Shown here: positions 1 through 10,682 of the stretch, in pieces | Numbering within the stretch: position 1 is the stretch's first letter | How the letters are laid out: each line of letters begins with the position of its first letter | NCBI RefSeq assembly: GCF_001306055.1 | Contig: NZ_LGHJ01000017.1 | Span: 1-32,000 of the forward strand | DNA length: 32,000 bases | DNA from: Bellilinea caldifistulae | Lineage (GTDB): Bacteria; Chloroflexota; Anaerolineae; Anaerolineales; Anaerolineaceae | Reading direction: 5' to 3' | Notes under the pieces: generated by a model | The model's database searches: none | Told to the model about the DNA's origin: nothing | Seen by the model: the letters and a program-made list of their open reading frames with translations, nothing else | Translations under genes and position numbers: made by a program

Positions 1-149
1 TGGAGGTGAAGAGGTCAAATCAAGATACACAGCCCCTTTGTTTTAGGGTGGATACCCCATCGAGTGCGGCTTTTCCACCCCTCAAACAGTCTGCTCGGCG
101 TATTACGCTTGATTTTTCAACTCTCTCTGAGGGCTGCCAGTTTTCGAGC

Positions 150-1790
150 TTAACCTTCCTTGAAGGCCACAAAGCGGCCCCACATGGATTCGGCTTCCAT
201 GGCTTTCTGTACAAAACAGCCAATGTAGTAGCGTCCACTGGGAGCATCCGCAATCTGGTAGCCAAGGTTCTCGGCATGCACGATCTTCTTGGGGAAGAGA
301 TTGAGGTGCATGTCTTGATAGTACTGATCGAGCGGGAACATTTCATCCCACGACTTACCGAAGTCGCGTTTGAGTTTTTCGTTGGCTTCTTCAAATGTCT
401 TGGGATGCCAGATACGCTGAATGGTGTTCATCGGGTGGTCGGCAGCAACGCAGTCCACACCAATCCATTTGATTTTCTTTTCGGCAGCCCATTGAGCAAA
501 ATCAGCGGAGGGGCCGGGGTGCTTGATCATGTAGCGGAACTCGTCCGAATCCGGGCTGATCCAGCCGTATTTATACCAGCCGGTCTTGATGATCAGGATA
601 TCGCCTTCGCGCACTTCAACGACCTTTTCGATCATCTCTGGCGAATACACGCTGGAATTGCTGACCATGCCGGAAATATCGGCAATCACACCCGGGCCGA
701 CCCACTCTTCCAGCGGCACCTGACCAATGGTGCGCCCGTTCGGGTAAAAGTGCTTTTCGCCATCCATGTGGGTTGCGAGGTGAATCGAGGCATTGCAGAT
801 CGAGCCGTTGCGCGCCATGCCGTAGTGAGCGCCGCCAACCCGCTTGAAGTACTTGACCGTCAGCGGCTCGTAATTGGCCCACTGTGGCGAACGTACCGAG
901 AACGGCACCGTCATGTCAATCATCTGGGCGCGGTCCATCGCCTCGTAGAATTCTTTTTCTTCCATCCACTCGGGCGGTTGATAAGCCACCACGCGCGCCC
1001 AGGCGGTTTCCACTTCCATGAAGGGGATTGGCATCACGGCAATCCATGCCCGCTGATTCTTGAGTTTATCAATGTCACCGACTATCGATTCGACAAACAG
1101 CAGATGATTCTTGGGCAGGGTAATATGAGTCATCTCATAGTACCAGTCCTGTGGGAACATTTCATCCCACGTCTTGCCGTATTCTTTAATCAATTTGGCT
1201 TCAGCCTTCTTGAACTCGTTTTCGTGCAGCCGGCGGATGGGGGTGTTCATCGGGTGTTCGGCGCAACCGCAATCCACACCGATCCACTTCAGCTTCATGT
1301 CCAGCGCCCACTGGAAGAACTCCGGTGAGGGACCGGGATGCCGTACCAGGAAACCAAACTCTTTGGATTCAACCCCGCCTTGAGCGTTCGGGTTATACAC
1401 ATCCGGTTGGTCCCATGAGTAGCGGTGATAACCGGTGTTGATGATCAGAATATCGCCTTTGCGCACATCGGCTTTCTTCATGATCATTTCCGGGGTGTAG
1501 AGGCTGTAATCCGAAACCATGTCGGAAATATCCACTACCACACCCTGACCGCACAGGTCGCTCAAGGGGATGTCGGAAATTGCCCGCCCGCCGGAATGAA
1601 AGGCCGTTTCACCGACCAGATGGGTGCCAACCGTGTTCGACCAGTTCAAAATCTGACCGTTAGCGCCAGCTCCGCCGCCATACGCGCCGGTTACCCGTTT
1701 GAAGAAATGAACTTCCAGGGCTTTATCGCCGGGGAAAGGCGGTGTGAAGATACTGCATCCCTGAGTCAGATCATATAATTTGGCTTCCGC
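150..1790 (-). repeat. Intragenic tandem duplication, period 819 bp (273 codons)
   Basis: Identical strings recur exactly 819 nt apart and in frame: GGGAACATTTCATCCCACG at 334 and 1153; GGTGTTCATCGGGTG at 423 and 1242. Confidence 0.8.
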
Positions 1791-1820
1791 CATCATTTTG
1801 ACAAACTTTTCACGATCCAT
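150..1820 (-). CDS. Internally duplicated putative cyclase / arylformamidase-family protein (two cyclase-like domains in one chain)
   Basis: ORF 150..1871. The two halves are homologous (HPGPSPEFFQWALDMKLKWIGVDCGCAEHPMNT vs HPGPSADFAQWAAEKKIKWIGVDCVAADHPMNT). The C-terminal half keeps an HxxxHxDxxxH motif (HLATHMDGEKH) typical of kynurenine-formamidase-like cyclases. Start placed at ATG 1820, with GGAGTGGAGGG about 7 nt upstream, rather than TTG 1871, which would overlap the upstream gene. Confidence 0.8.
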   Translation of the reverse strand: MDREKFVKMMAEAKLYDLTQGCSIFTPPFPGDKALEVHFFKRVTGAYGGGAGANGQILNWSNTVGTHLVGETAFHSGGRAISDIPLSDLCGQGVVVDISDMVSDYSLYTPEMIMKKADVRKGDILIINTGYHRYSWDQPDVYNPNAQGGVESKEFGFLVRHPGPSPEFFQWALDMKLKWIGVDCGCAEHPMNTPIRRLHENEFKKAEAKLIKEYGKTWDEMFPQDWYYEMTHITLPKNHLLFVESIVGDIDKLKNQRAWIAVMPIPFMEVETAWARVVAYQPPEWMEEKEFYEAMDRAQMIDMTVPFSVRSPQWANYEPLTVKYFKRVGGAHYGMARNGSICNASIHLATHMDGEKHFYPNGRTIGQVPLEEWVGPGVIADISGMVSNSSVYSPEMIEKVVEVREGDILIIKTGWYKYGWISPDSDEFRYMIKHPGPSADFAQWAAEKKIKWIGVDCVAADHPMNTIQRIWHPKTFEEANEKLKRDFGKSWDEMFPLDQYYQDMHLNLFPKKIVHAENLGYQIADAPSGRYYIGCFVQKAMEAESMWGRFVAFKEG

Positions 1821-1848
1821 TTTTTCCCTCCACTCCTGATCAAAAGGT

Positions 1849-3093
1849 TTAGATGCCGTACTTGTCGGCAAAGGCGATCAAAGCATCCTCAAATGCCGAC
1901 ATGGGCATACTCACCACACCCGCGCCAACCTGGCCAACACCGGGATCTTTGTGGGCTACACCCGTATTGACACGCGGCGGAAGTTGTTTTTCCACCACTT
2001 TACGGATATCCACGCCGGTGGGTGTGCCGCGGAAATCCAGATAGGGGATGGTGTAGTATTTATGCTCGGCGGTAGTAATCTCGTACATATCCAATGTGGT
2101 GCGAATGGCATCCTGCGCTGTACCGCCGATGAAAGTCACAATCGCCGGGGCGGCTGCCATGGCAAAACCGCCGATACCGGTTGTTTCAGTGATCACACTA
2201 TCGCCAATGTCGGGGTTGGCGTCTTTCTCGGTAAAGCCGGCAAAATACAGGGCTTTTACATGCGGGGCGGGTGCGGTAAACCAGCGGTCGCCCAAACCGC
2301 TGACTTTCAAACCAAAATCTGTACCATTGCGTCCCATAATCGACACAACCGTACTGCCTTCGACGCCATGGGCGGCCATTGAAGCGGTTTTACAGCCTGC
2401 CATCACGGGGTTCAAGATAGTGAGCGCATTTTCGCCCATGAACTTCAACACATCGAAGGCAATATCAGAGTTCTTAGCAACTTTCGAAACATGCGGTGCC
2501 AGCACAGTGGTAAACAAAATTGAAGCCGCATCAAGCCGGTTGTGGCCGTCATCACCCATGTGCAGCGCCTTGCCCAATAGGGAGCGCAGATCAACGCCGC
2601 CACTGTTTTTCAAGGCAGCATCCACCGTTGGGCCAAACACCTCGTTTAGCCAGCGCATGCGTTGAATGACATCCTCGCTGTAAGCACCCATCCGCATCAC
2701 CTTGCCGCGCCCCTCGTTGAGCCCGGAAAAGGCTTTATTGCCAAATACCTGATCTTCAACGATGTAAACCATCATTTCAGGCGAAATCACTCCCGCCATC
2801 GGGCCCACCGAAGCGTAATCATGACACGGGGCGAATTTGAACTTACCGGAGGCCAGCATGGCTTCGGCTTCTTTAGCATCCTTAGCCTTGCCCTCAAACA
2901 GCAGGGCGCCGATCATGTTGCCCTTCATCGGGCCAGCCATCCGCTCCCAGGTCACTGGCGGGCCAGCGTGCAGTAAAAGATCATCGGTCATGCCGGGAAT
3001 GACTTCTTTGGCTGGGGCTACCCCAACCACCACCGGCCGGGCTTCCATCATATTTTCAACCGCTTTTCTATTGGCATCTTCAATATTGATCAT
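1849..3093 (-). CDS. DUF1116 family protein (YlbE/AllG-like)
   Basis: 414-aa ORF. Its length and its position directly downstream of fdrA match E. coli ylbE. GGAGGAGG RBS lies upstream of ATG 3093. The family call is from recalled similarity and gene context. Confidence 0.75.
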   Translation of the reverse strand: MINIEDANRKAVENMMEARPVVVGVAPAKEVIPGMTDDLLLHAGPPVTWERMAGPMKGNMIGALLFEGKAKDAKEAEAMLASGKFKFAPCHDYASVGPMAGVISPEMMVYIVEDQVFGNKAFSGLNEGRGKVMRMGAYSEDVIQRMRWLNEVFGPTVDAALKNSGGVDLRSLLGKALHMGDDGHNRLDAASILFTTVLAPHVSKVAKNSDIAFDVLKFMGENALTILNPVMAGCKTASMAAHGVEGSTVVSIMGRNGTDFGLKVSGLGDRWFTAPAPHVKALYFAGFTEKDANPDIGDSVITETTGIGGFAMAAAPAIVTFIGGTAQDAIRTTLDMYEITTAEHKYYTIPYLDFRGTPTGVDIRKVVEKQLPPRVNTGVAHKDPGVGQVGAGVVSMPMSAFEDALIAFADKYGI

Positions 3094-3137
3094 GATCCTC
3101 CTCCAAAAAATTTTCTGGGTGATTCTGTCAAATCATC

Positions 3138-4880
3138 TCAACTGGCGGAAAGTTTTTTCATCCGCTCCAAAATGCTGGCCAGTTTTTCGTTACCACCAGC
3201 CGGTGGCCGCCAATCTACCTGGATAACAGGGGTTTCCTGAGCGGTGAGATTTTCGGCAAACGATTCGAGCCCGACATTGAAGGCTTTGACCGGCTTTTTA
3301 AGTATTTCCAAATCCACCGGTGCAGCCGACGACTGCGCTTCATCCAGCGGCTGGTTGAGCGCCTGGATAATTTGACCGGCATAGCGTACGGCGGCTTCAT
3401 TGCTGGTTTCCACCCACGCTCCGCCCTGTTTCAACTGGCGGATTTGATGACTGAGTTTTTGCGGGTCTTCCTCCGTACCTGTGCAAACGACCACCACTTC
3501 CAGATAGCGCCCGGCTTTTTCGGCTTTGGCTTTGGCTTTGGCTTCGGCAATCGCCGGGCCAAGTTCGCTGGCCGGGTCGGGATGCGAACCGAAACCAATC
3601 ACCACATCCATCAAAATCACCGCCACCTCGGGGTCATTCGCCTCCTCCATCAAACGCCGAATACGCAGGTCGTTATCCATCATCGGGTGCAGGCGGCCGA
3701 CCGTGAACTCGTCTTCGCCCAGGTCTACAATGGTATGCTCAACGCTCACCAGCGAGTCTTTGAGTTTGTTCTCCTTGTTGATGGGCGCATTGGCATACAC
3801 TTTTGGCACATATTCGGTCAGCAGGTGCTGGGCCTCGTAAGCCAGTGTGCCGCCGGAAAACAGACCCCGCAGGTATTTTTGGCCGGGGGCAAATCGTTCC
3901 AGTTTCAGATCCGGTTCGACCTCCAGCACGGGCGGGCTTTTAGCAAGCTCAACTGCCAGCGCGGCTGCATCATCCAGCCCGGAGGCAAAAAACAAATTCC
4001 CCACCCGCCGCGAAATCGGGGTACGTCCAATAAAGTTGACCACTACCGGTTTACCGGCCTTACGCGCCACCCGCAGCACCTGATCAGCCACTTTGGGGGA
4101 AGGCGGCTTGGACACCAGCACAATCACTTTGGTATCCGGGTCACGGCTGAGAGCATCCAGCCCCATCAGGAAGGTCACGCCTCCCACTTTTTCGGAGAGA
4201 TCCCGCCCGCCCGTGCCAATTCCAAAGGTCATACCGCCACCCAGCTGGTCAATGCGGGAGGCTACCTGCTGTAAACCGGTGCCGGCGGCTGCGACCACAC
4301 CAATCGGCCCGCGCCGGACTTTGTTGGCGAAACCCAGACCGATGCCATTAATCATCGCAGTACCGCAGTCCGGACCCATGACGAGCAGACCCTTCTGAGC
4401 TGCCTCCGCTTTTAAAGAAATTTCCTCTTCAACGGGTACATTATCGCTGAAGAGGAAAACGTGCTTGTTGAGCCGTAATGCTTCGCGGGCGACACCGGCG
4501 GCATAACGGCCAGCCACCGAAATCAACACCCAGTTGGCATCCGGCATCATACTCTGGGCGCCTTCCAGACTGCGCGGCCGGTAATCCTGCTGGATGCTGG
4601 ACTTGCGCGCCGAGAGCAGCTCGTCCACTCGTTGGAGGGCATCACTGGCAGCCCGTTCATCGCCAGCTCGCACCACAATCACCAGATCATTTTCCTTGGC
4701 CTGTTCCACCTCGGTGGTTACCAGATTGACCCGAACGAGCAATTCTTTGTTCGTAGGGGTACCCATAATCACGCCGGCGTCTTCGACACCGGGCAAGTCC
4801 GCCAGTGACCGCTGCAGCTGCATCAAAACGGCTGAATCGTAGTAAACACCGCTGCGAATTTCGGCTTTAATCACGCTCAT
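3138..4880 (-). CDS. fdrA: FdrA family protein (acyl-CoA synthetase / succinyl-CoA-synthetase-alpha-like)
   Basis: 580 aa. Long collinear matches to E. coli FdrA as I recall it (SVAGRYAA...FSDNVPVEEEISLK...KGLLVMGPDCGTAMI; VIGFGSHPDPA; LAGGNEKLASILERM at the C-terminus). GGAG RBS before the ATG. Confidence 0.85.
   Translation of the reverse strand: MSVIKAEIRSGVYYDSAVLMQLQRSLADLPGVEDAGVIMGTPTNKELLVRVNLVTTEVEQAKENDLVIVVRAGDERAASDALQRVDELLSARKSSIQQDYRPRSLEGAQSMMPDANWVLISVAGRYAAGVAREALRLNKHVFLFSDNVPVEEEISLKAEAAQKGLLVMGPDCGTAMINGIGLGFANKVRRGPIGVVAAAGTGLQQVASRIDQLGGGMTFGIGTGGRDLSEKVGGVTFLMGLDALSRDPDTKVIVLVSKPPSPKVADQVLRVARKAGKPVVVNFIGRTPISRRVGNLFFASGLDDAAALAVELAKSPPVLEVEPDLKLERFAPGQKYLRGLFSGGTLAYEAQHLLTEYVPKVYANAPINKENKLKDSLVSVEHTIVDLGEDEFTVGRLHPMMDNDLRIRRLMEEANDPEVAVILMDVVIGFGSHPDPASELGPAIAEAKAKAKAEKAGRYLEVVVVCTGTEEDPQKLSHQIRQLKQGGAWVETSNEAAVRYAGQIIQALNQPLDEAQSSAAPVDLEILKKPVKAFNVGLESFAENLTAQETPVIQVDWRPPAGGNEKLASILERMKKLSAS
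3522..3545. repeat. Hexanucleotide microsatellite (GGCTTT)x3 + GGCTTC inside fdrA
   Basis: ggctttggctttggctttggcttc. On the minus strand it encodes the AKAKAKAE(K) linker of FdrA. It stays in frame. Confidence 0.9.
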
Positions 4881-5112
4881 GTTTCACTCCTATTCCTGGA
4901 ATCATCCAAATAACCGAACAGAAATAAGCTCCTGTCGGTTGATTTTGGCTGGTAAAAGTAATTTGAAAATCCATTTTCAGTCTGTGCCTGAAAAGGGAAT
5001 GCCTTTTGGTGTGATGTTTTGCTTCGCTTTTGGGTTTCAGCTTTTGTATGGGTAGAGGAAAACTCGGCAGAGTTCTGGCCGGGAAAAGAAATGTTTGACA
5101 ACTGACAAATTG

Positions 5113-5141
5113 AGTATAGCACTTCAGGATAATCGAGTCAA
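5113..5141 (-). promoter_or_regulatory. Sigma70-like promoter for the fdrA operon (TTGACT-17-TATACT)
   Basis: Minus strand reads TTGACT cgattatcctgaagtgc TATACT, with an exact 17-nt spacer. It lies about 230 nt upstream of the fdrA ATG. Confidence 0.45.
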
Positions 5142-5173
5142 TTGGGGTAATTTCATCATGATGACTGTTTCAA

Positions 5174-5208
5174 CCGGTCTGACCCGTTTTTGGAACAGGT
5201 CAGACCGG
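5174..5208 (-). terminator. Perfect 11-bp hairpin downstream of the GNAT-like gene (possible terminator, no clear U-tract)
   Basis: CCGGTCTGACC (5174-5184) and GGTCAGACCGG (5198-5208) flank a 13-nt loop, 20 nt after the stop of the 5228..5881 CDS. Confidence 0.3.
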
Positions 5209-5227
5209 CACACTACACCCAGCAACT

Positions 5228-5881
5228 TTAAAGTTCAAGAGTTTCCGGCACGCGCAGTACCGCGTTGGCCTTGCGCACTTCTTCCGGCACATCGAAGTTC
5301 AGGTCATTACCGACCGCATCTACCAGATATTGCTTAAGCTGGATATTCCAGTGATCCTGATTGACGTAGAAGACTTTGGCGCCGCCCAGTTCATGCTGGT
5401 ATTCCGGCCACGGTTTGGTGGGTTGCGCCATTGCCAAACCGGCCATCCGCCAGCCATTGTAACTTTCGAAAGTTGACCACCACTCCTTGGCTTTGCAGAT
5501 TTCCATGGCGTAGTAGGTTTTGGCGTAGTACATTGCCCAGCCGACCCGTCCGCGGCGCGAAAAGGCCATCGTGTGCAGACTGATAGCAAGGTCTTTGTTC
5601 CAGAAACGTCCGTTGGCAAAACCAACAAATTCACCGTCAATCAAACCGAGAATAGTGAAAGCATCCTTGATGCGTTTGCGTTTGACCGCCAGAATTTCGC
5701 CATAGACGCGCACACCGACAATGTCATAAAAATCTTTTTCGACCTTCATCACCCGTTCCATGAAACCGAGCAGAGTGGGGATGTCATCCTCGGTCATTGA
5801 GCGCAGGTAAAGGGTGCGGCCGTCTTTGAGTTGGAAAGTCGCTTCCGGCCATGGCGGTAATTGCATGGGATAACCCTGCAA
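5228..5881 (-). CDS. GNAT-family N-acetyltransferase-like protein (tentative)
   Basis: 217 aa. The opening LRSMTEDDIPTLLGFM is GNAT-like, and RRGRVGWA fits the Q/RxxGxG/A acetyl-CoA loop. The start is ambiguous: TTG 5881 (GAGG 5 nt upstream) or ATG 5866. Confidence 0.5.
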   Translation of the reverse strand: MQGYPMQLPPWPEATFQLKDGRTLYLRSMTEDDIPTLLGFMERVMKVEKDFYDIVGVRVYGEILAVKRKRIKDAFTILGLIDGEFVGFANGRFWNKDLAISLHTMAFSRRGRVGWAMYYAKTYYAMEICKAKEWWSTFESYNGWRMAGLAMAQPTKPWPEYQHELGGAKVFYVNQDHWNIQLKQYLVDAVGNDLNFDVPEEVRKANAVLRVPETLEL

Positions 5882-5910
5882 AATTGCCTCAACTTCGCCA
5901 ATGTCAATCG

Positions 5911-5952
5911 TTAACGTGTCAACGGATACGGGAGTTGGGGGGTAAGTTTCAT
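5911..5952 (-). CDS. Candidate 13-codon leader peptide (MKLTPQLPYPLTR)
   Basis: ATG at 5952 is preceded by AGGAG with an 8-nt spacer, and TAA is at 5911-5913. It sits inside the predicted leader of the GNAT-like gene. There is no other support. Confidence 0.2.
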   Translation of the reverse strand: MKLTPQLPYPLTR

Positions 5953-6034
5953 CTGGTCTGCTCCTAATAAAAATTTGGGATTAACGGAAGGTTTCCAGTC
6001 CTCCGGGCAAGGTTGACTCATTTGAGAGGAATGG

Positions 6035-6077
6035 AAACAAAACAACCCGCAAGGTTTTTACACCTGCTGGACGGGTT
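6035..6077 (-). promoter_or_regulatory. Terminator-like leader hairpin plus U-run (possible attenuator)
   Basis: Minus-strand RNA: AACCCG...(22 nt)...CGGGUU followed by GUUUUGUUU. It lies between the predicted promoter (6142-6170) and the sORF/GNAT start. Confidence 0.25.
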
Positions 6078-6141
6078 TTACAACTACATTGTGTGGATAT
6101 TGATGGTATTGCCTTATGAAACTGTAGGGTGAAGTACTTTT

Positions 6142-6170
6142 ATTATAGCCAATCCAAAAACCTCAGTCAA
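6142..6170 (-). promoter_or_regulatory. Sigma70-like promoter (TTGACT-17-TATAAT)
   Basis: Minus strand reads TTGACT gaggtttttggattggc TATAAT, with an exact 17-nt spacer. It is about 255 nt upstream of the GNAT-like CDS. Confidence 0.45.
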
Positions 6171-6230
6171 TAACACTTGTAATTTTAGCGTCGGATAATT
6201 GTCATACAAATTATCGTCTATTGGCTGGGG

Positions 6231-6872
6231 TCAAGGCCGGCGGATGGCCAGTTGACCCTCGATGATTTCGCTCAAATAAGCCAGAGAAGGCGGCCCGAAG
6301 ATTTTTTCACCGTTCAGCCAGAAGGCCGGGGTAACGCTGAAGCCATTTTCACCAGCCCGGCGCATGTCAAATTCCACCTTGCGGCGCATCTGACTCTCGT
6401 CCAGGCATTGATTGAAAATCGGCATATCCAGACCCAGCCGGGAAGCATACCCTTTCAATGCCTCCACTCCCAGTCCGGCATCCTGCTCATACAGCAGGTC
6501 ATGGTACTCCCAAAAACGCCCCTGGTTATGGGCACACTGACCGGCCTCGGCGGCTTTGATAGAAGCCGTACTTCGTCTGGCGTTATCCCGCCAGATGAAC
6601 AGCACCTGATCGGGGTAACGCTGCAACAGCCCCTCGCGCACCTGAGCGCGGTGCCACAGGCGGCAGACTTCGCAGGCGTAATCCCCATATTCAATCAAGA
6701 CAATCGCCGCATCCGGGTTGCCCAAAAAGGGGTCATCCAGGAGGCGCCGATCGGCCACCTCCGGATAATTCGGCTTTGGCAACAGGAGTACCAGTCCCAG
6801 CAAAGTAATGATCAAAATCATGACCAAAACCGCCGGGCGGCTCTTTATGGCATCCAGTAATTTGAGCGACAT
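6231..6872 (-). CDS. DsbA-family thioredoxin-fold thiol:disulfide oxidoreductase, N-terminal membrane anchor
   Basis: 213 aa. Hydrophobic anchor PAVLVMILIITLLGLVLLL, CxxC motif (YACEVC), GGAGA RBS 8 nt before the ATG. Confidence 0.75.
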   Translation of the reverse strand: MSLKLLDAIKSRPAVLVMILIITLLGLVLLLPKPNYPEVADRRLLDDPFLGNPDAAIVLIEYGDYACEVCRLWHRAQVREGLLQRYPDQVLFIWRDNARRSTASIKAAEAGQCAHNQGRFWEYHDLLYEQDAGLGVEALKGYASRLGLDMPIFNQCLDESQMRRKVEFDMRRAGENGFSVTPAFWLNGEKIFGPPSLAYLSEIIEGQLAIRRP

Positions 6873-6947
6873 GGTAATTTCTCCGTAAAATTACATCCTG
6901 TTTGTTTTTTAGATGCCAGAACGGCCGTTTTTCTTACCCAAAGACCA

Positions 6948-6975
6948 TTGACAATTCAATAAAGGTTCATAAAAT
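6948..6975 (+). promoter_or_regulatory. Sigma70-like promoter (TTGACA-16-TAAAAT) for the IclR-like gene
   Basis: ttgaca at 6948-6953, taaaat at 6970-6975. This would give a very short leader to ATG 6995. Confidence 0.35.
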
Positions 6976-7002
6976 TATACCTGAGTATAAATATATGAAC
7001 AA
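6974..7002 (-). promoter_or_regulatory. Possible divergent promoter (TTGTTC-17-TATAAT) for the DsbA-like gene
   Basis: Minus-strand TATAAT at 6974-6979 overlaps the plus-strand -10 element. The -35 is weak at 6997-7002. Confidence 0.25.
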
Positions 7003-8161
7003 TAATTTTCAAAAGGACTCGCTGGTTTCTACCGCCGAACGCACCCTCAAACTGGTTGAATTATTCCTCAACCATTCTGAGGGATTGACCCCCCAGGAAA
7101 TTCTGCCTCATTTGGGGATTTCTCGCGGCGCATTGTTCTTGCTGCTGCGCACCCTAAAAAACGCCGGTTACCTCGAACAAAGCGAACGGCGCGGGCGTTA
7201 TCGAGCCGGATCTCGTTTAGCCGCCTGGCGCACCACCAGCAGCGAGTTTCACCAAAATCTGATGGATGCTTTCTATCAGGAAGTCCGTCACCACCCCTGC
7301 TCGGAAACCCTGCTCATCACGGTGCCTGCCGCTCCAGGTGTGCTGACATTGGCACAGGTCGAAAGCCGCCAAACCGTCCGCAGTGCCTATCCGGTTGGAG
7401 AAGTGATTGGCATCCCCAGCCCTGCCGAAGACATCTTCCAATCGCCGCCAGCGGTCTCGGTCCTGCGCAACGGCTATTCGCTGAAACGCTCAAACGAGAT
7501 TATCGAACTGGCTCTACCGGTTTGCCCGGACGGGATTCATCCTCAAGCCGCCCTGCTGCTCAGTGCGCCAGCCTTTCGCTGGACGGAAGAGACCCTCGTC
7601 CAACAATGGCTGGCCGAATTGCGCGCTCTGGCTGCGCGGCTCTCCTACCGTCTTGGGGCTGCCACCTACACCCCCTATCAGGTTCAGCAGCCCGGCCAGT
7701 TGCCCGCCGAAGCTCCCCTGAATCCTCAGGAAATCCGCCGCTTTTTACAGGGGCCCTGGACCGCGCGGCTGGCCTGCCTGCGTCCTGACGGCAAGCCGCA
7801 TGTCATCCCGGTCTGGCAGGAGTGGGACGGCAAGGCTTTTTACCTGATCGCCTGGCGGGGTTCGCTGTGGGCTGAATACCTGCTCAACAACCCGGAAGCC
7901 TCGCTGACAATTGACGAACCCTGGCCGCCGCTGCGCCGGGTTTCTGCCCGCGGTAAAGCCTTTCCTCTGCCTCTTGGTAAGGACGACCCGCAATTGAACG
8001 ACCTTTTACGCCGCCTTTCCGAGCGTTACCTCGGTGAAGCCGCCCTCGCCCCTTCCACTGAACAGATTCAACAGGTCTTTCAAATCATTCCCGAAACCCT
8101 GCGCGGCTGGAAAGGTCTGCTAACTGCCCAATCGCCCAAAGATGAGGTTACTGCTCCATGA
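6995..8161 (+). CDS. Fusion regulator: IclR-type winged-HTH N-terminus plus C-terminal pyridoxamine-5'-phosphate-oxidase-like (PNPOx/FMN- or F420-binding split-barrel) domain
   Basis: N-terminus TAERTLKLVELFLNHSEGLTPQEILPHLGISRGALFLLLRTLKNAGYLEQ is IclR-HTH-like. C-terminus WTARLACLRPDGKPHVIPVWQEWDGKAFYLIAWRGSLWAEYLLNNPEASLTIDE is PNPOx-like. ATG 6995 was chosen over TTG 6902 because the predicted promoter lies inside the longer ORF. Confidence 0.65.
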   Translation: MNNNFQKDSLVSTAERTLKLVELFLNHSEGLTPQEILPHLGISRGALFLLLRTLKNAGYLEQSERRGRYRAGSRLAAWRTTSSEFHQNLMDAFYQEVRHHPCSETLLITVPAAPGVLTLAQVESRQTVRSAYPVGEVIGIPSPAEDIFQSPPAVSVLRNGYSLKRSNEIIELALPVCPDGIHPQAALLLSAPAFRWTEETLVQQWLAELRALAARLSYRLGAATYTPYQVQQPGQLPAEAPLNPQEIRRFLQGPWTARLACLRPDGKPHVIPVWQEWDGKAFYLIAWRGSLWAEYLLNNPEASLTIDEPWPPLRRVSARGKAFPLPLGKDDPQLNDLLRRLSERYLGEAALAPSTEQIQQVFQIIPETLRGWKGLLTAQSPKDEVTAP

Positions 8162-8916
8162 AGGTCGAAATCGCCGCCCTCAACCATACCTTTTTTACCC
8201 CTCAACCTCGCCCGGCGCTCCTTAATCTTGATTTACACATCCCCAGCGGGCAATTCGCTGCCATCATTGGACCGAGCGGATGCGGAAAGTCCACCCTGCT
8301 GCGGCTGATCGCCGGCCTGCTTCAGCCGACCAGCGGCAGTATCCTTCTGGATGGCAAAACCCCGGCGGAAGCCAACGCCGCCCGGCAGGTCGCCTGGCTG
8401 GCGCAAAGTCCGGCACTGCTACCCTGGCTGACAGTGGAAGGCAACATTGCGCTGGCTCGTAAACTGCTGGCAACCCGTCTCAACCATCAAATGAGCGTTC
8501 AACAGGCCCTCCAGCGGGTTGGGTTGGAAAATGCCGCCCGTGCCTACCCCTTTACCCTCTCCGGCGGTATGCAGCAGCGCCTTGCGCTGGCCCGCCTGCT
8601 GATTCAAAACGCTGGCCTGTGGCTGATGGACGAACCCTTTGCTGCTCTGGACGAAATCACCCGTGAACAACTGGCTGCCATGCTGCTCGATCTGTGGCAG
8701 CCGGCCCAGCCCACCGTTTTATGGGTCACCCACAATATTTACGAAGCCCTTCGCCTGGCCGAACGAGTAATCGTCCTTTCGCCAGCCCCCGGCCAGATGG
8801 TTGCCGATTTCAGCGTGGCTCTGCCGCATCCGCGTCGCGAAGATACACCCGCCTTTCAAAATCTGCTGTACGAAGTACGGACAGCCCTCAATCAGGCGGT
8901 GGAGGCAGCCGCATGA
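8158..8916 (+). CDS. ABC transporter ATP-binding protein, NitT/TauT (nitrate/sulfonate/bicarbonate-type) family
   Basis: Walker [10 protein letters not shown], signature LSGGMQQR, Walker [17 protein letters not shown] overlap with the regulator's stop. Confidence 0.9.
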
Positions 8917-9677
8917 AGAAACCGCAGCCGGGCGGCGGTCAGATAGCCGTGCTGATTGTGCTGTTCTTCCTGCTGGTTTGGGAAGCCGCCGTCAGCCTGT
9001 CGCAAATTCCAGTCTATCTGCTGCCGGCCCCCAGCCGCATCCTGCAAACCCTGTTTGAACACCCGCAACTCTACGCCCAGGCCAGCCTGCTGACCCTGGG
9101 CGAGGCGTTCGCCGGCCTGCTGATCGGCCTGCTGGCAGGGGTGTTGATTGCTTCGCTACTGACGCTGATGCCCGGTTTGGAAGAGGGGGTCATGACGCTC
9201 GCCATCTTGCTTAAATCCACCCCTCTTGTCGCAATTGCCCCGCTACTGACCATCTGGCTGGGGTTTGGTATTCTGCCCAAAATCATCATCACTGCACTGC
9301 TGACCTTCTTTCCGGTGCTGGTCAACGTCCTCAGCGGTCTCCAGAAGGCCGAAAATCACCATCTGGAGTTATTCCACTCCTGGCACGCCTCGCGCGGGGA
9401 GGTCTTTCGTTACCTGCGTGCCCCCAACGCCCTCCCCTACCTGTTTGCCGCCCTTAAAATTTCCGCTCCGCTGGCGTTGATCGGCGCGGTGGTAGCCGAG
9501 TGGACCGGCGCATCCGGCGGGTTGGGGCGGGTAATGTGGCTGGCCTACACCAACTTAAACCTTCCTTTTCTGTTTGCAGCCATTTTTATCCTCGCCGCGG
9601 CTGGTATGTCACTCTATCGCCTGACCGTCTGGTTGGAACGACGAATCATCTTCTGGCAATCCCATCCCGAACCTTGA
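8913..9677 (+). CDS. ABC transporter permease (SsuC/TauC-like)
   Basis: Start ATG 8913 overlaps the ATPase stop (ATGA). The protein is multi-TM with a BPD-transporter-like core. The longer ORF from 8694 is an in-frame artefact inside the ATPase gene. Confidence 0.85.
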
Positions 9678-9686
9678 GAGGTGAAC

Positions 9687-10682
9687 ATGCAACGCTTTAC
9701 TTCCCTTTCTCTGCTCCTCGTTCTCTTTCTGCTGGTTTCCGCCTGCACTCCTGCAGCCCCGCAGCCCTCACCAACCCCTGAGCCAGTTGCCCTGACTTTT
9801 ATGGCTGGTTACAAACCGCAGGCCAATTTACCGTTCGTGGGGGCTTATGTTGCCAAAGAAAAAGGTTTTTTTGAACGCGAAGGACTGGAAGTAACCATTG
9901 AGCATTCCGCCGGCCAGGGTGAGCATCTCCAACTGCTTACCGCCGGCAAGATTCAGGTGACCACCCAGGATGCCGCGGTGCTGCTGCAACGCCGCGCCGA
10001 CCCGGGTCTGCCACTGGTTTCGATTGCGCTGATCGGACAGCGCGGTCAGCAAGCCTACGCCGCCCTGGCTTCCTCCGGCATTCAAACGCCCAAAGACTGG
10101 GAAGGGCGTACGGTCGGATACAAGGGCACTCCCCCGCCCGACCTGTTCGCCCTGCTCAAAGCTGCCGGCGCCGATCCAGAGAAAATCTCGCTGGTCAATG
10201 TTGGCTTTGACCCGCGCATCCTCACCGAGGGCAAGGTAGATGTCTACCCGGTCTTCAAGTCCAACGAACCCTACCTGATTCGCTCTTGGGGGTATGAATT
10301 AACTCTTTGGGAAGCCGCCGATTACGACGTGCCGACCCTTGGCCTGACCTATGTAACTACGGAAACCATCCTGCAAGAACAACCGGAAGCCCTGCGCCGC
10401 TTTCTCAAAGCCGCCCTGGAGGGCATCCGCTACGCCGAGCAGCACCCCGACGAGGCAGTAGAGATTGTGCTGAAGTACACCGGCCCGCAGGCCGATCCGC
10501 AGCACATGCGCTACATGCTGGAAACCGAACTTGGCGATGCGAAATCCCCGCTGACCGAACAGTACGGCTACGGCTGGCAAACCCAGGAGCAGTGGTCGGC
10601 TTTGGCCGACTTGCTGGTACAGCAGGGCATCCTTCCGGCGGTAGAGGTTGAAAAGGCGTTTACTACCGACTTGTTGAAGTAG
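9687..10682 (+). CDS. ABC substrate-binding lipoprotein, NMT1/THI5 (SsuA-like) family
   Basis: Signal peptide with lipobox LVSAC. GAGAGG RBS 5 nt before ATG 9687. The family call is from general sequence similarity. Confidence 0.8.
   Translation: MQRFTSLSLLLVLFLLVSACTPAAPQPSPTPEPVALTFMAGYKPQANLPFVGAYVAKEKGFFEREGLEVTIEHSAGQGEHLQLLTAGKIQVTTQDAAVLLQRRADPGLPLVSIALIGQRGQQAYAALASSGIQTPKDWEGRTVGYKGTPPPDLFALLKAAGADPEKISLVNVGFDPRILTEGKVDVYPVFKSNEPYLIRSWGYELTLWEAADYDVPTLGLTYVTTETILQEQPEALRRFLKAALEGIRYAEQHPDEAVEIVLKYTGPQADPQHMRYMLETELGDAKSPLTEQYGYGWQTQEQWSALADLLVQQGILPAVEVEKAFTTDLLK

Follow-up and report, generated by a model that had tools for sequence, protein, structure and literature searches.

In E. 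coli, the products of allF, allG and allH convert oxalurate and phosphate to oxamate and carbamoyl phosphate in a reversible reaction, for which all three genes were shown to be needed (PMC11326118). AllFGH was recognized as an enzyme only in 2024, and then only in the allantoin pathway of E. coli. This paper will focus on a related locus of Bellilinea caldifistulae, located in a stretch of 32,000 nucleotides, here called the window, which starts with the first base of contig C23; coordinates without a contig name are window positions. Within positions 150-4880, three co-directional open reading frames (ORFs) were identified on the minus strand, coding for FdrA (the AllF homologue), AllG (DUF1116) and a two-domain protein of the cyclase family, designated Cyc2. 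The evidence leans toward a catabolic cluster conserved in Anaerolineae and comprising about 12 to 20 genes, which has this triad at its core and would constitute a cyclase-assisted AllFGH-type route for nucleobases.

Compared to E. coli allFGHK, the genome of B. caldifistulae is similar in that it contains single-copy homologues of all three subunits and, in addition, a carbamate kinase. However, the genes for AllH (DUF2877) and carbamate kinase are located outside the operon, AllG is followed by a dedicated cyclase-fold hydrolase, a GNAT-fold protein is associated with the system, and the context is formed by a molybdenum hydroxylase and a nucleobase permease, with no allantoin genes. The system is a variant with the same three core proteins as E. 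coli allFGHK but with another gene content and context, and probably another substrate. Particular to this window are the fusion of two cyclase domains, one of them with a dead site, the move of AllH and of a second cyclase (Cyc1) to another locus, the insertion of a repeat and a frameshift in the gene for the GNAT-fold protein (orf8). A description of FdrA/DUF1116 in combination with a cyclase or with a molybdenum hydroxylase was not found in the published literature, with subscription-only papers lying outside the search.

A second described system with a similar logic is the oxidative pyrimidine pathway of Rhodococcus, which consists of uracil dehydrogenase, barbiturase and ureidomalonase. 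Ring opening of barbiturate gives ureidomalonate, which is the one-carbon homologue of oxalurate. Both in Rhodococcus and in the route proposed here, an oxidation by a hydroxylase would be combined with the hydrolytic opening of a ureide and the splitting of an N-acyl-ureide. In contrast to Rhodococcus, the last step is proposed to be phosphorolytic via AllFGH and not hydrolytic, and the hosts are anaerobic. For the cyclase, KynB and isatin hydrolase are members of the same fold family (PF04199; structures 4CO9, 4CZ1 and 1R61). The motif HxGTHxDxxxH, a distal His and a Glu are retained in the C-terminal half of Cyc2 and in Cyc1; unlike KynB and isatin hydrolase, Cyc2 is a tandem fusion with an N-terminal half lacking three ligands, and a tryptophan-pathway context is missing.

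FdrA contains a Ligase_CoA domain (9.8e-34) and a CoA_binding domain according to Pfam, and reached 570.9 bits with the NCBIfam model NF004760, 'acyl-CoA synthetase FdrA' (cut-off 433). It aligns with E. coli FdrA (PDB 3DMY) with an E-value of 1e-100 and is the single copy above the NCBIfam cut-off in the genome. In the alignment, the position of the phosphohistidine of succinyl-CoA synthetase (SCS) is occupied by Asn, as it is in E. coli FdrA, and an argument based on a phosphohistidine in FdrA was dropped for this reason. AllG, the sole copy in the genome, matched PF06545 with 8.4e-87 and 290.6 bits (cut-off 27). Its AlphaFold model (pLDDT 85) superimposes on the DUF1116 protein from Enterococcus faecalis (3CLQ) with a TM score of 0.94 at 46% identity. 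The fold search matched this DUF1116 structure and no other fold; 3CLQ is a structural-genomics entry to which no function is assigned, so that a mechanistic lead was not obtained.

The earlier note on this DNA had described fdrA and a DUF1116 gene followed 28 nt later by a two-domain cyclase. These family assignments were confirmed, and Cyc2 was found to start with the ATG at 1820, preceded by GGAGTGGAGGG and exactly 28 nt past the AllG stop codon. With 28 nt, this spacer is too short for a promoter, and none was detected in it. A consensus scan of the minus strand detected neither promoter-like nor terminator-like sites between the three genes, and the site nearest upstream was identified ahead of fdrA. 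However, the result of this consensus matching was not above that of shuffled controls, so that the scan is weak evidence for cotranscription.

Cyc2 matched PF04199 above the gathering score in two stretches (6.9e-58, 195.3 bits), and in a search of the genome with the same model its halves gave 112.8 and 88.9 bits. Each domain comprises about 270-290 amino acids, with a long insertion ahead of the distal His. Both halves of eight Cyc2 orthologues were aligned with seven Cyc1 orthologues. The motif H-x-[GA]-T-H-x-D-x-x-x-H, the distal His and the Glu are kept in the C-terminal half, where the motif reads HLATHMDGEKH, and in Cyc1. In the N-terminal half, Thr, Val and Ala occupy three of the four motif ligand positions in 8/8 of the Cyc2 orthologues aligned. 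The kynurenine formamidase structures 4CO9 and 1R61 align with the C-terminal half only. From this alignment, Cyc2 looks like a fused pseudo-dimer carrying one active site. The halves are approximately 40% identical to one another and to Cyc1, and the duplication is therefore old. The equivalog for the arylformamidase of the tryptophan pathway, TIGR03035, was not matched by Cyc2 (54.2 bits compared to a cut-off of 223); with a score so far under the cut-off, it is unlikely that 'kynurenine formamidase' and 'arylformamidase', as the protein is named in databases, are correct.

To describe the conservation of the triad, ORFs were called and clustered in 80 related loci from different species, mostly Anaerolineae, and representatives were annotated. 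The Cyc2 homologues in these loci are of 76-98% identity, and AllG is located directly upstream of Cyc2 in 74/80 of them, which shows that the arrangement is not due to chance. Most of the remaining loci are cut by a contig end, L015 being the one clear exception. In 59/59 loci with all three proteins at full length, Cyc2 is the most conserved, with median identities of 80.7% for Cyc2, 66.3% for FdrA and 67.4% for AllG. The coupling of the FdrA/DUF1116 pair to a metal amidohydrolase-type protein, as suggested in the earlier note, is thus tight and conserved.

In the Bellilinea-type loci, orf8, FdrA, AllG and Cyc2 are followed by the FAD, 2Fe-2S and molybdopterin subunits of a hydroxylase of the XDH/CODH family (here MoFAD, MoFeS and MoL), CoxG, an NCS2 nucleobase permease, an NmrA-like protein, two small proteins of unknown family and a MoaD/ThiS-like protein. 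In other lineages, a CN-hydrolase is encoded between FdrA and AllG, a DinB/MST-like protein follows Cyc2, and an ABC importer of the Bmp type replaces the permease. In about 20 loci, the gene directly upstream of FdrA codes for a family III CoA-transferase, and orf8 is conserved beside FdrA in about 30. In G149, a genome of the same order as the window genome, CoA-transferase, FdrA, CN-hydrolase, AllG, Cyc2, NmrA, DinB, hydroxylase, CoxG, ABC importer, Cyc1 and AllH are encoded on one strand within about 25 kb. The roughly 950-nt gap between FdrA and AllG present in many loci had been expected to contain AllH, but the gap gene was identified as the CN-hydrolase. A gene for a 23S rRNA intervening-sequence protein (PF05635) was seen between AllG and Cyc2 in L052 (L052:4982-5470), L021, L026, L044 and L061.

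The downstream part of the operon was found on another contig. In the closest relative, the uncultured Bellilinea locus L004, in which Cyc2 is 98% identical, nine further co-directional genes follow Cyc2, and the order is orf8-FdrA-AllG-Cyc2-MoFAD-MoFeS-MoL-CoxG-permease-NmrA. In the B. caldifistulae genome, the genes following Cyc2 are present at C29:208124-218138, up to 127 bases from the contig end; the three-subunit molybdenum hydroxylase, CoxG, the nucleobase permease and the NmrA-like gene are all intact, with 75-97% protein identity to L004. Bases 1-128 of the window are the end of a multicopy repeat, which explains why contig and window begin here; they recur with 97-100% identity at the termini, or close to them, of at least 17 other contigs. 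The last 127 bases of C29 (G000:C29:218138-218264) represent its opposite end, of which at least 15 copies were found, and include an apparent ORF start, possibly of a transposase. From these sequences, an insertion-sequence-like repeat appears to have inserted between the Cyc2 stop codon and the first hydroxylase gene, splitting the operon over C23 and C29. It sits 21 nt past the Cyc2 stop and about 147 nt ahead of the MoFAD start, and the unique spacer on both sides adds up to 168 nt, matching the 165-nt spacer of L004. As stated in the earlier note, no gene for DUF2877 or carbamate kinase follows the cyclase within the window, which ends 149 nt beyond it where C23 begins; the sequence to the left, which had been named as the place to look, contains the hydroxylase genes beyond the repeat and neither DUF2877 nor arcC immediately downstream.

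The hydroxylase subunits carry FAD_binding_5, Fer2_2 and MoCoBD domains, as annotated on the L004 orthologues, to which the copies of B. caldifistulae are 95-97% identical. An equivalog of known substrate was not matched: the best was CODH group 5 with 815 bits (cut-off 950), and XdhA gave 415 bits (cut-off 780). For the permease, the uracil permease ranked best among the NCBIfam models, ahead of RutG and xanthine permease, with all scores below the cut-offs.

Exactly one gene for AllH was identified in the genome, at C18:19959-20843, with 3.5e-20 and 73-75 bits on PF11392 (cut-off 25). In some relatives, AllH is co-located with FdrA and AllG. On C18, AllH is divergent from the gene for Cyc1, a paralogous single-domain cyclase of 310 amino acids with an intact metal motif, and Cyc1 is followed by an orf8 paralogue. 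Since AllH, FdrA and AllG are each present in a single copy, the C18 protein is the sole available partner for FdrA-AllG of the window. Contig C18 (43.6 kb) has the repeat at both ends (C18:1-127 and 43038-43164), which is compatible with a repeat-mediated rearrangement that split an ancestral supercluster in this strain.

Co-occurrence was analyzed in 201 sampled genomes of the class, each at least 80% complete; a test statistic was not calculated because of the kinship among the genomes. AllG is present in 71 genomes, AllH in 64, Cyc2 in 34 and the Cyc1/Cyc2-type cyclase subfamily in 69. As to the neighbourhood statistics called for in the earlier note, AllG and the cyclase subfamily are found together in 66 genomes, and in 49 of the 71 AllG genomes the two lie within 5 kb of each other, a pattern which spans many families. 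Cyc2 is accompanied by AllG in 33/34 genomes and by AllH in 28/34, and 58/71 AllG genomes have AllH. These counts indicate that the cyclase is an addition to the AllF/G/H system and no substitute for AllH. Carbamate kinase is nearly universal (171/201 genomes), and its co-occurrence is for this reason uninformative. The barbiturase family PF09663 was found in 0/201 genomes in a search that had no positive control, so that its absence is weakly shown.

On the basis of these data, the cluster would, with a probability that we place slightly above even, couple the molybdenum hydroxylase and CoxG, a nucleobase importer, the metal amidohydrolases Cyc1 and Cyc2 of a dedicated cyclase-fold subfamily and an AllF/AllG/AllH-type enzyme. 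In the pathway that we infer, with respect to its substrate, the order of its steps, phosphorolysis and the place of the cyclase as a subunit of the complex or as a separate enzyme, an N-heterocycle, most likely a pyrimidine such as uracil, would be imported by the NCS2 permease, or elsewhere by the Bmp-type ABC importer. The molybdenum hydroxylase would oxidize it to a barbiturate-type cyclic acyl-ureide, and ring opening or amide trimming would fall to the one metal site that is intact in Cyc2, or to those of Cyc1. FdrA-AllG and the C18 AllH would then cleave the linear N-acyl-ureide with phosphate to yield carbamoyl phosphate, in analogy to the cleavage of oxalurate by E. coli AllFGH. From carbamoyl phosphate, the single carbamate kinase of the genome would form ATP. 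In other lineages, the CN-hydrolase and the CoA-transferase could handle the leftover amide or acid. The substrate of the cluster is probably a pyrimidine, a lean based on the resemblance of ureidomalonate to oxalurate, on the permease scores and on the presence of a dihydropyrimidinase in the genome G046; a purine-derived ureide is possible as well. A further-reaching and more tentative proposal, which we hold with clearly less confidence, is that the cyclase-fold subfamily is an obligate fourth partner of AllF/AllG/AllH, possibly a subunit, and that together with the hydroxylase it might form an O2-independent oxidative route for pyrimidines of the uracil type, leading from the ureide via carbamoyl phosphate to ATP.

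Several points weigh against the proposed pathway. Carbamate kinase is unclustered, since it was found within 10 kb of Cyc2 in none of the 80 loci. Permease and hydroxylase score under every equivalog cut-off, and the substrate class is only a lean for this reason. The Asn at the SCS phosphohistidine position, seen in the sequence of FdrA, makes the phosphoryl chemistry hard to explain, and the model accounts only loosely for the CoA chemistry suggested by the GNAT-fold protein and the CoA-transferase. As judged from the assembled sequence, the interruption of the operon by the repeat and the frameshift in orf8 may impair the pathway in this strain. In addition, AllH was unmatched in six Cyc2 genomes (G053, G066, G067, G108, G128 and G171; 91-98% complete), including 3/3 sampled genomes of genus g63 (G067, G108 and G171; 91-96% complete), in which Cyc1-FdrA-AllG-Cyc2 and the hydroxylase are present; in some lineages, AllH may not be needed or may have diverged beyond detection.

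In the earlier note, the cyclase had been placed next to FdrA/DUF1116 instead of DUF2877. Cyc2 would then replace DUF2877 as the third partner and an AllH-independent variant enzyme would result. The location of Cyc2 directly after AllG, which is the position of AllH in E. coli, the six Cyc2 genomes without an AllH match, with all three of genus g63 among them, and the degenerate N-terminal half, which could be a purely structural module, are in line with such a replacement. It is nevertheless improbable, because the genome retains its single AllH beside a paralogous cyclase, and because AllH is found in the Cyc2 genomes in the same proportion as in the AllG genomes. Moreover, gene orders are known in which both are present: L083 has AllH-Cyc1-FdrA-AllG-Cyc2, G121 has AllG-cyclase-AllH, and G046 has MoFAD-MoFeS-MoL-AllG-Cyc2-AllH-dihydropyrimidinase, with AllH beginning 2 nt past the end of Cyc2 and the gene after it coding for a true dihydropyrimidinase. 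The substitution was thus not borne out. An ordinary oxamate carbamoyltransferase acting on oxalurate in the allantoin branch, as in E. coli, with the cyclase as an unrelated neighbour, also has little to recommend it. FdrA exceeds its NCBIfam cut-off, AllG and AllH exceed the Pfam cut-offs of families named after the E. coli enzyme, and a carbamate kinase is present in the genome. However, the genes are surrounded by those for a molybdenum hydroxylase, a permease and a GNAT-fold protein, and the cyclase co-occurs with AllG too often, and is usually too close to it, for a chance neighbour. Two context features that define the E. coli system were not found either, and the locus was for this reason not filed as oxamate carbamoyltransferase: carbamate kinase (allK) is not adjacent but about 116 kb away on C29, and an allantoin neighbourhood (allB/C/D/E) is missing among the annotated conserved neighbours. 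Allantoinase, allantoate amidohydrolase and ureidoglycolate dehydrogenase were absent from the annotated conserved gene clusters of the 80 loci, in which rarer neighbours were not all scanned. The description of the cluster as non-canonical in the earlier note is supported, as an allFGHK arrangement is lacking.

Slightly less remote, but still doubtful, is a reading in which FdrA-AllG would activate or transfer an organic acid in a CoA-dependent manner. The GNAT-fold protein and the CoA-transferase would be its partners, the cyclases would be simple amidases, and no carbamoyl phosphate would be formed. The CoA_binding and Ligase_CoA domains of FdrA, the conservation of the GNAT-fold protein beside both FdrA and Cyc1 and the family III CoA-transferase upstream of FdrA would fit such a chemistry. 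However, FdrA is devoid of the SCS phosphohistidine, AllH, which is known from the carbamoyltransferase only, is retained, and the only experimental activity in the family is a carbamoyl transfer without CoA (PMC11326118). A comparably low probability is given to the cluster being in decay or silent in this strain, in which case the hydroxylase genes would be cut off by the repeat from the promoter of fdrA, in addition to the frameshift in the GNAT-fold gene. The position of the repeat between Cyc2 and MoFAD, the change from C7 to C6 at codon 5 of orf8 and the placement of AllH, Cyc1 and the paralogue of orf8 on C18, apart from the triad and between copies of the same repeat, point in this direction. 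On the other side, none of the other ORFs of the cluster is truncated, with 75-97% identity to the closest relative, the C6 run may be a homopolymer length error of the assembly, and a restart would preserve most of orf8. The catabolic nucleobase route is thus preferred among these readings, and the features of the locus are collected in the table.

Features of the fdrA-allG-cyc2 locus in the window
Feature	Position	Strand	Basis or remark
Repeat end, probably insertion sequence	1-128		Multicopy at contig ends
Cyc2, two-domain cyclase (PF04199), 556 aa	150-1820	minus	Pfam; ATG at 1820
Cyc2 C-terminal half	150-965	minus	Full HxATHxDxxxH + H + E ligand set
Cyc2 N-terminal half	about 966-1820	minus	Metal site degenerate (alignment of halves)
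AllG-Cyc2 spacer, 28 nt	1821-1848	minus	Carries Shine-Dalgarno-like GGAGTGGAGGG
AllG (DUF1116/YlbE family), 414 aa	1849-3093	minus	PF06545
FdrA-AllG spacer, 44 nt	between 3138-4880 and 1849-3093	minus	
FdrA (AllF family), 580 aa	3138-4880	minus	NCBIfam NF004760, Pfam and 3DMY alignment
fdrA leader, about 230 nt	4881-5141, including promoter-like site	minus	
Promoter-like site TTGACT-17-TATACT	5113-5141	minus	Upstream of fdrA; consensus scan
orf8, GNAT-fold protein	5228-5952	minus	Upstream of fdrA; fold search of model
Promoter-like site TTGACT-17-TATAAT, 11/12 matches	6142-6170	minus	Upstream of orf8; consensus match only

Upstream of fdrA, an Rfam search of both leaders (4700-6400) matched no family, so that a riboswitch gave no clue to the ligand. 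An 81-codon ORF at 4877-5122 on the minus strand, which overlaps the fdrA leader, is probably no gene, since it has no Pfam match and a translation of low complexity. For orf8, no Pfam match was obtained, and its predicted model (pLDDT 82) appears to be related to GNAT acetyltransferases (Foldseek E-value 2e-6). A more specific assignment as a GNAT protein of the malonyl-CoA-decarboxylase type was rejected, because the fold search gave generic GNAT acetyltransferases only. A DNA alignment revealed a -1 frameshift at codon 5 of orf8, with six C at 5937-5942 compared to seven in L004, L007 and L008, which could be a homopolymer error of the assembly. The 13-codon 'uORF' (5911-5952) of the earlier note turned out to be the displaced original N-terminus of the frameshifted orf8. 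An in-frame restart at TTG or ATG would leave 212-217 of the 241 residues.

Further upstream, positions 6231-10682 of the window contain genes for a DsbA-like protein, a fusion regulator of the IclR-HTH/PNPOx-like type and an ABC importer. These genes hold the same position beside the cluster in about 11 loci, of the Bellilinea type only, and they may represent a local regulator and a second uptake system. The single carbamate kinase gene of the genome occupies C29:101910-102842 and is thereby separated by about 116 kb from the end of C29 where the cluster lies. Around it (G000:C29:98000-108000, L093), genes were observed for two carbamoyltransferases of the OTCase family, a GntR/UTRA regulator, an adenine deaminase, another amidohydrolase and a Bmp-type ABC importer. 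L093 looks like a second catabolic cluster for nucleobases or ureides.

In summary, the three-protein AllFGH machine recurs in another setting in about a third of the sampled Anaerolineae genomes, and in most of the related loci examined, AllFGH-type genes are located beside a molybdenum hydroxylase and a nucleobase importer. In the annotation of these genomes, 'kynurenine formamidase' and 'acyl-CoA synthetase FdrA' are probably incorrect labels. If the proposed pathway is true, functions would be assigned to DUF1116, to DUF2877, to a large orphan branch of 'cyclases' and to a group of form-II CoxL-like hydroxylases, and a concrete panel of substrates would be at hand for probing the mechanism of AllFGH. 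For the organisms, which are abundant anaerobic bacteria of digesters and sediments, it would mean an energy-conserving fermentation of nucleobases.

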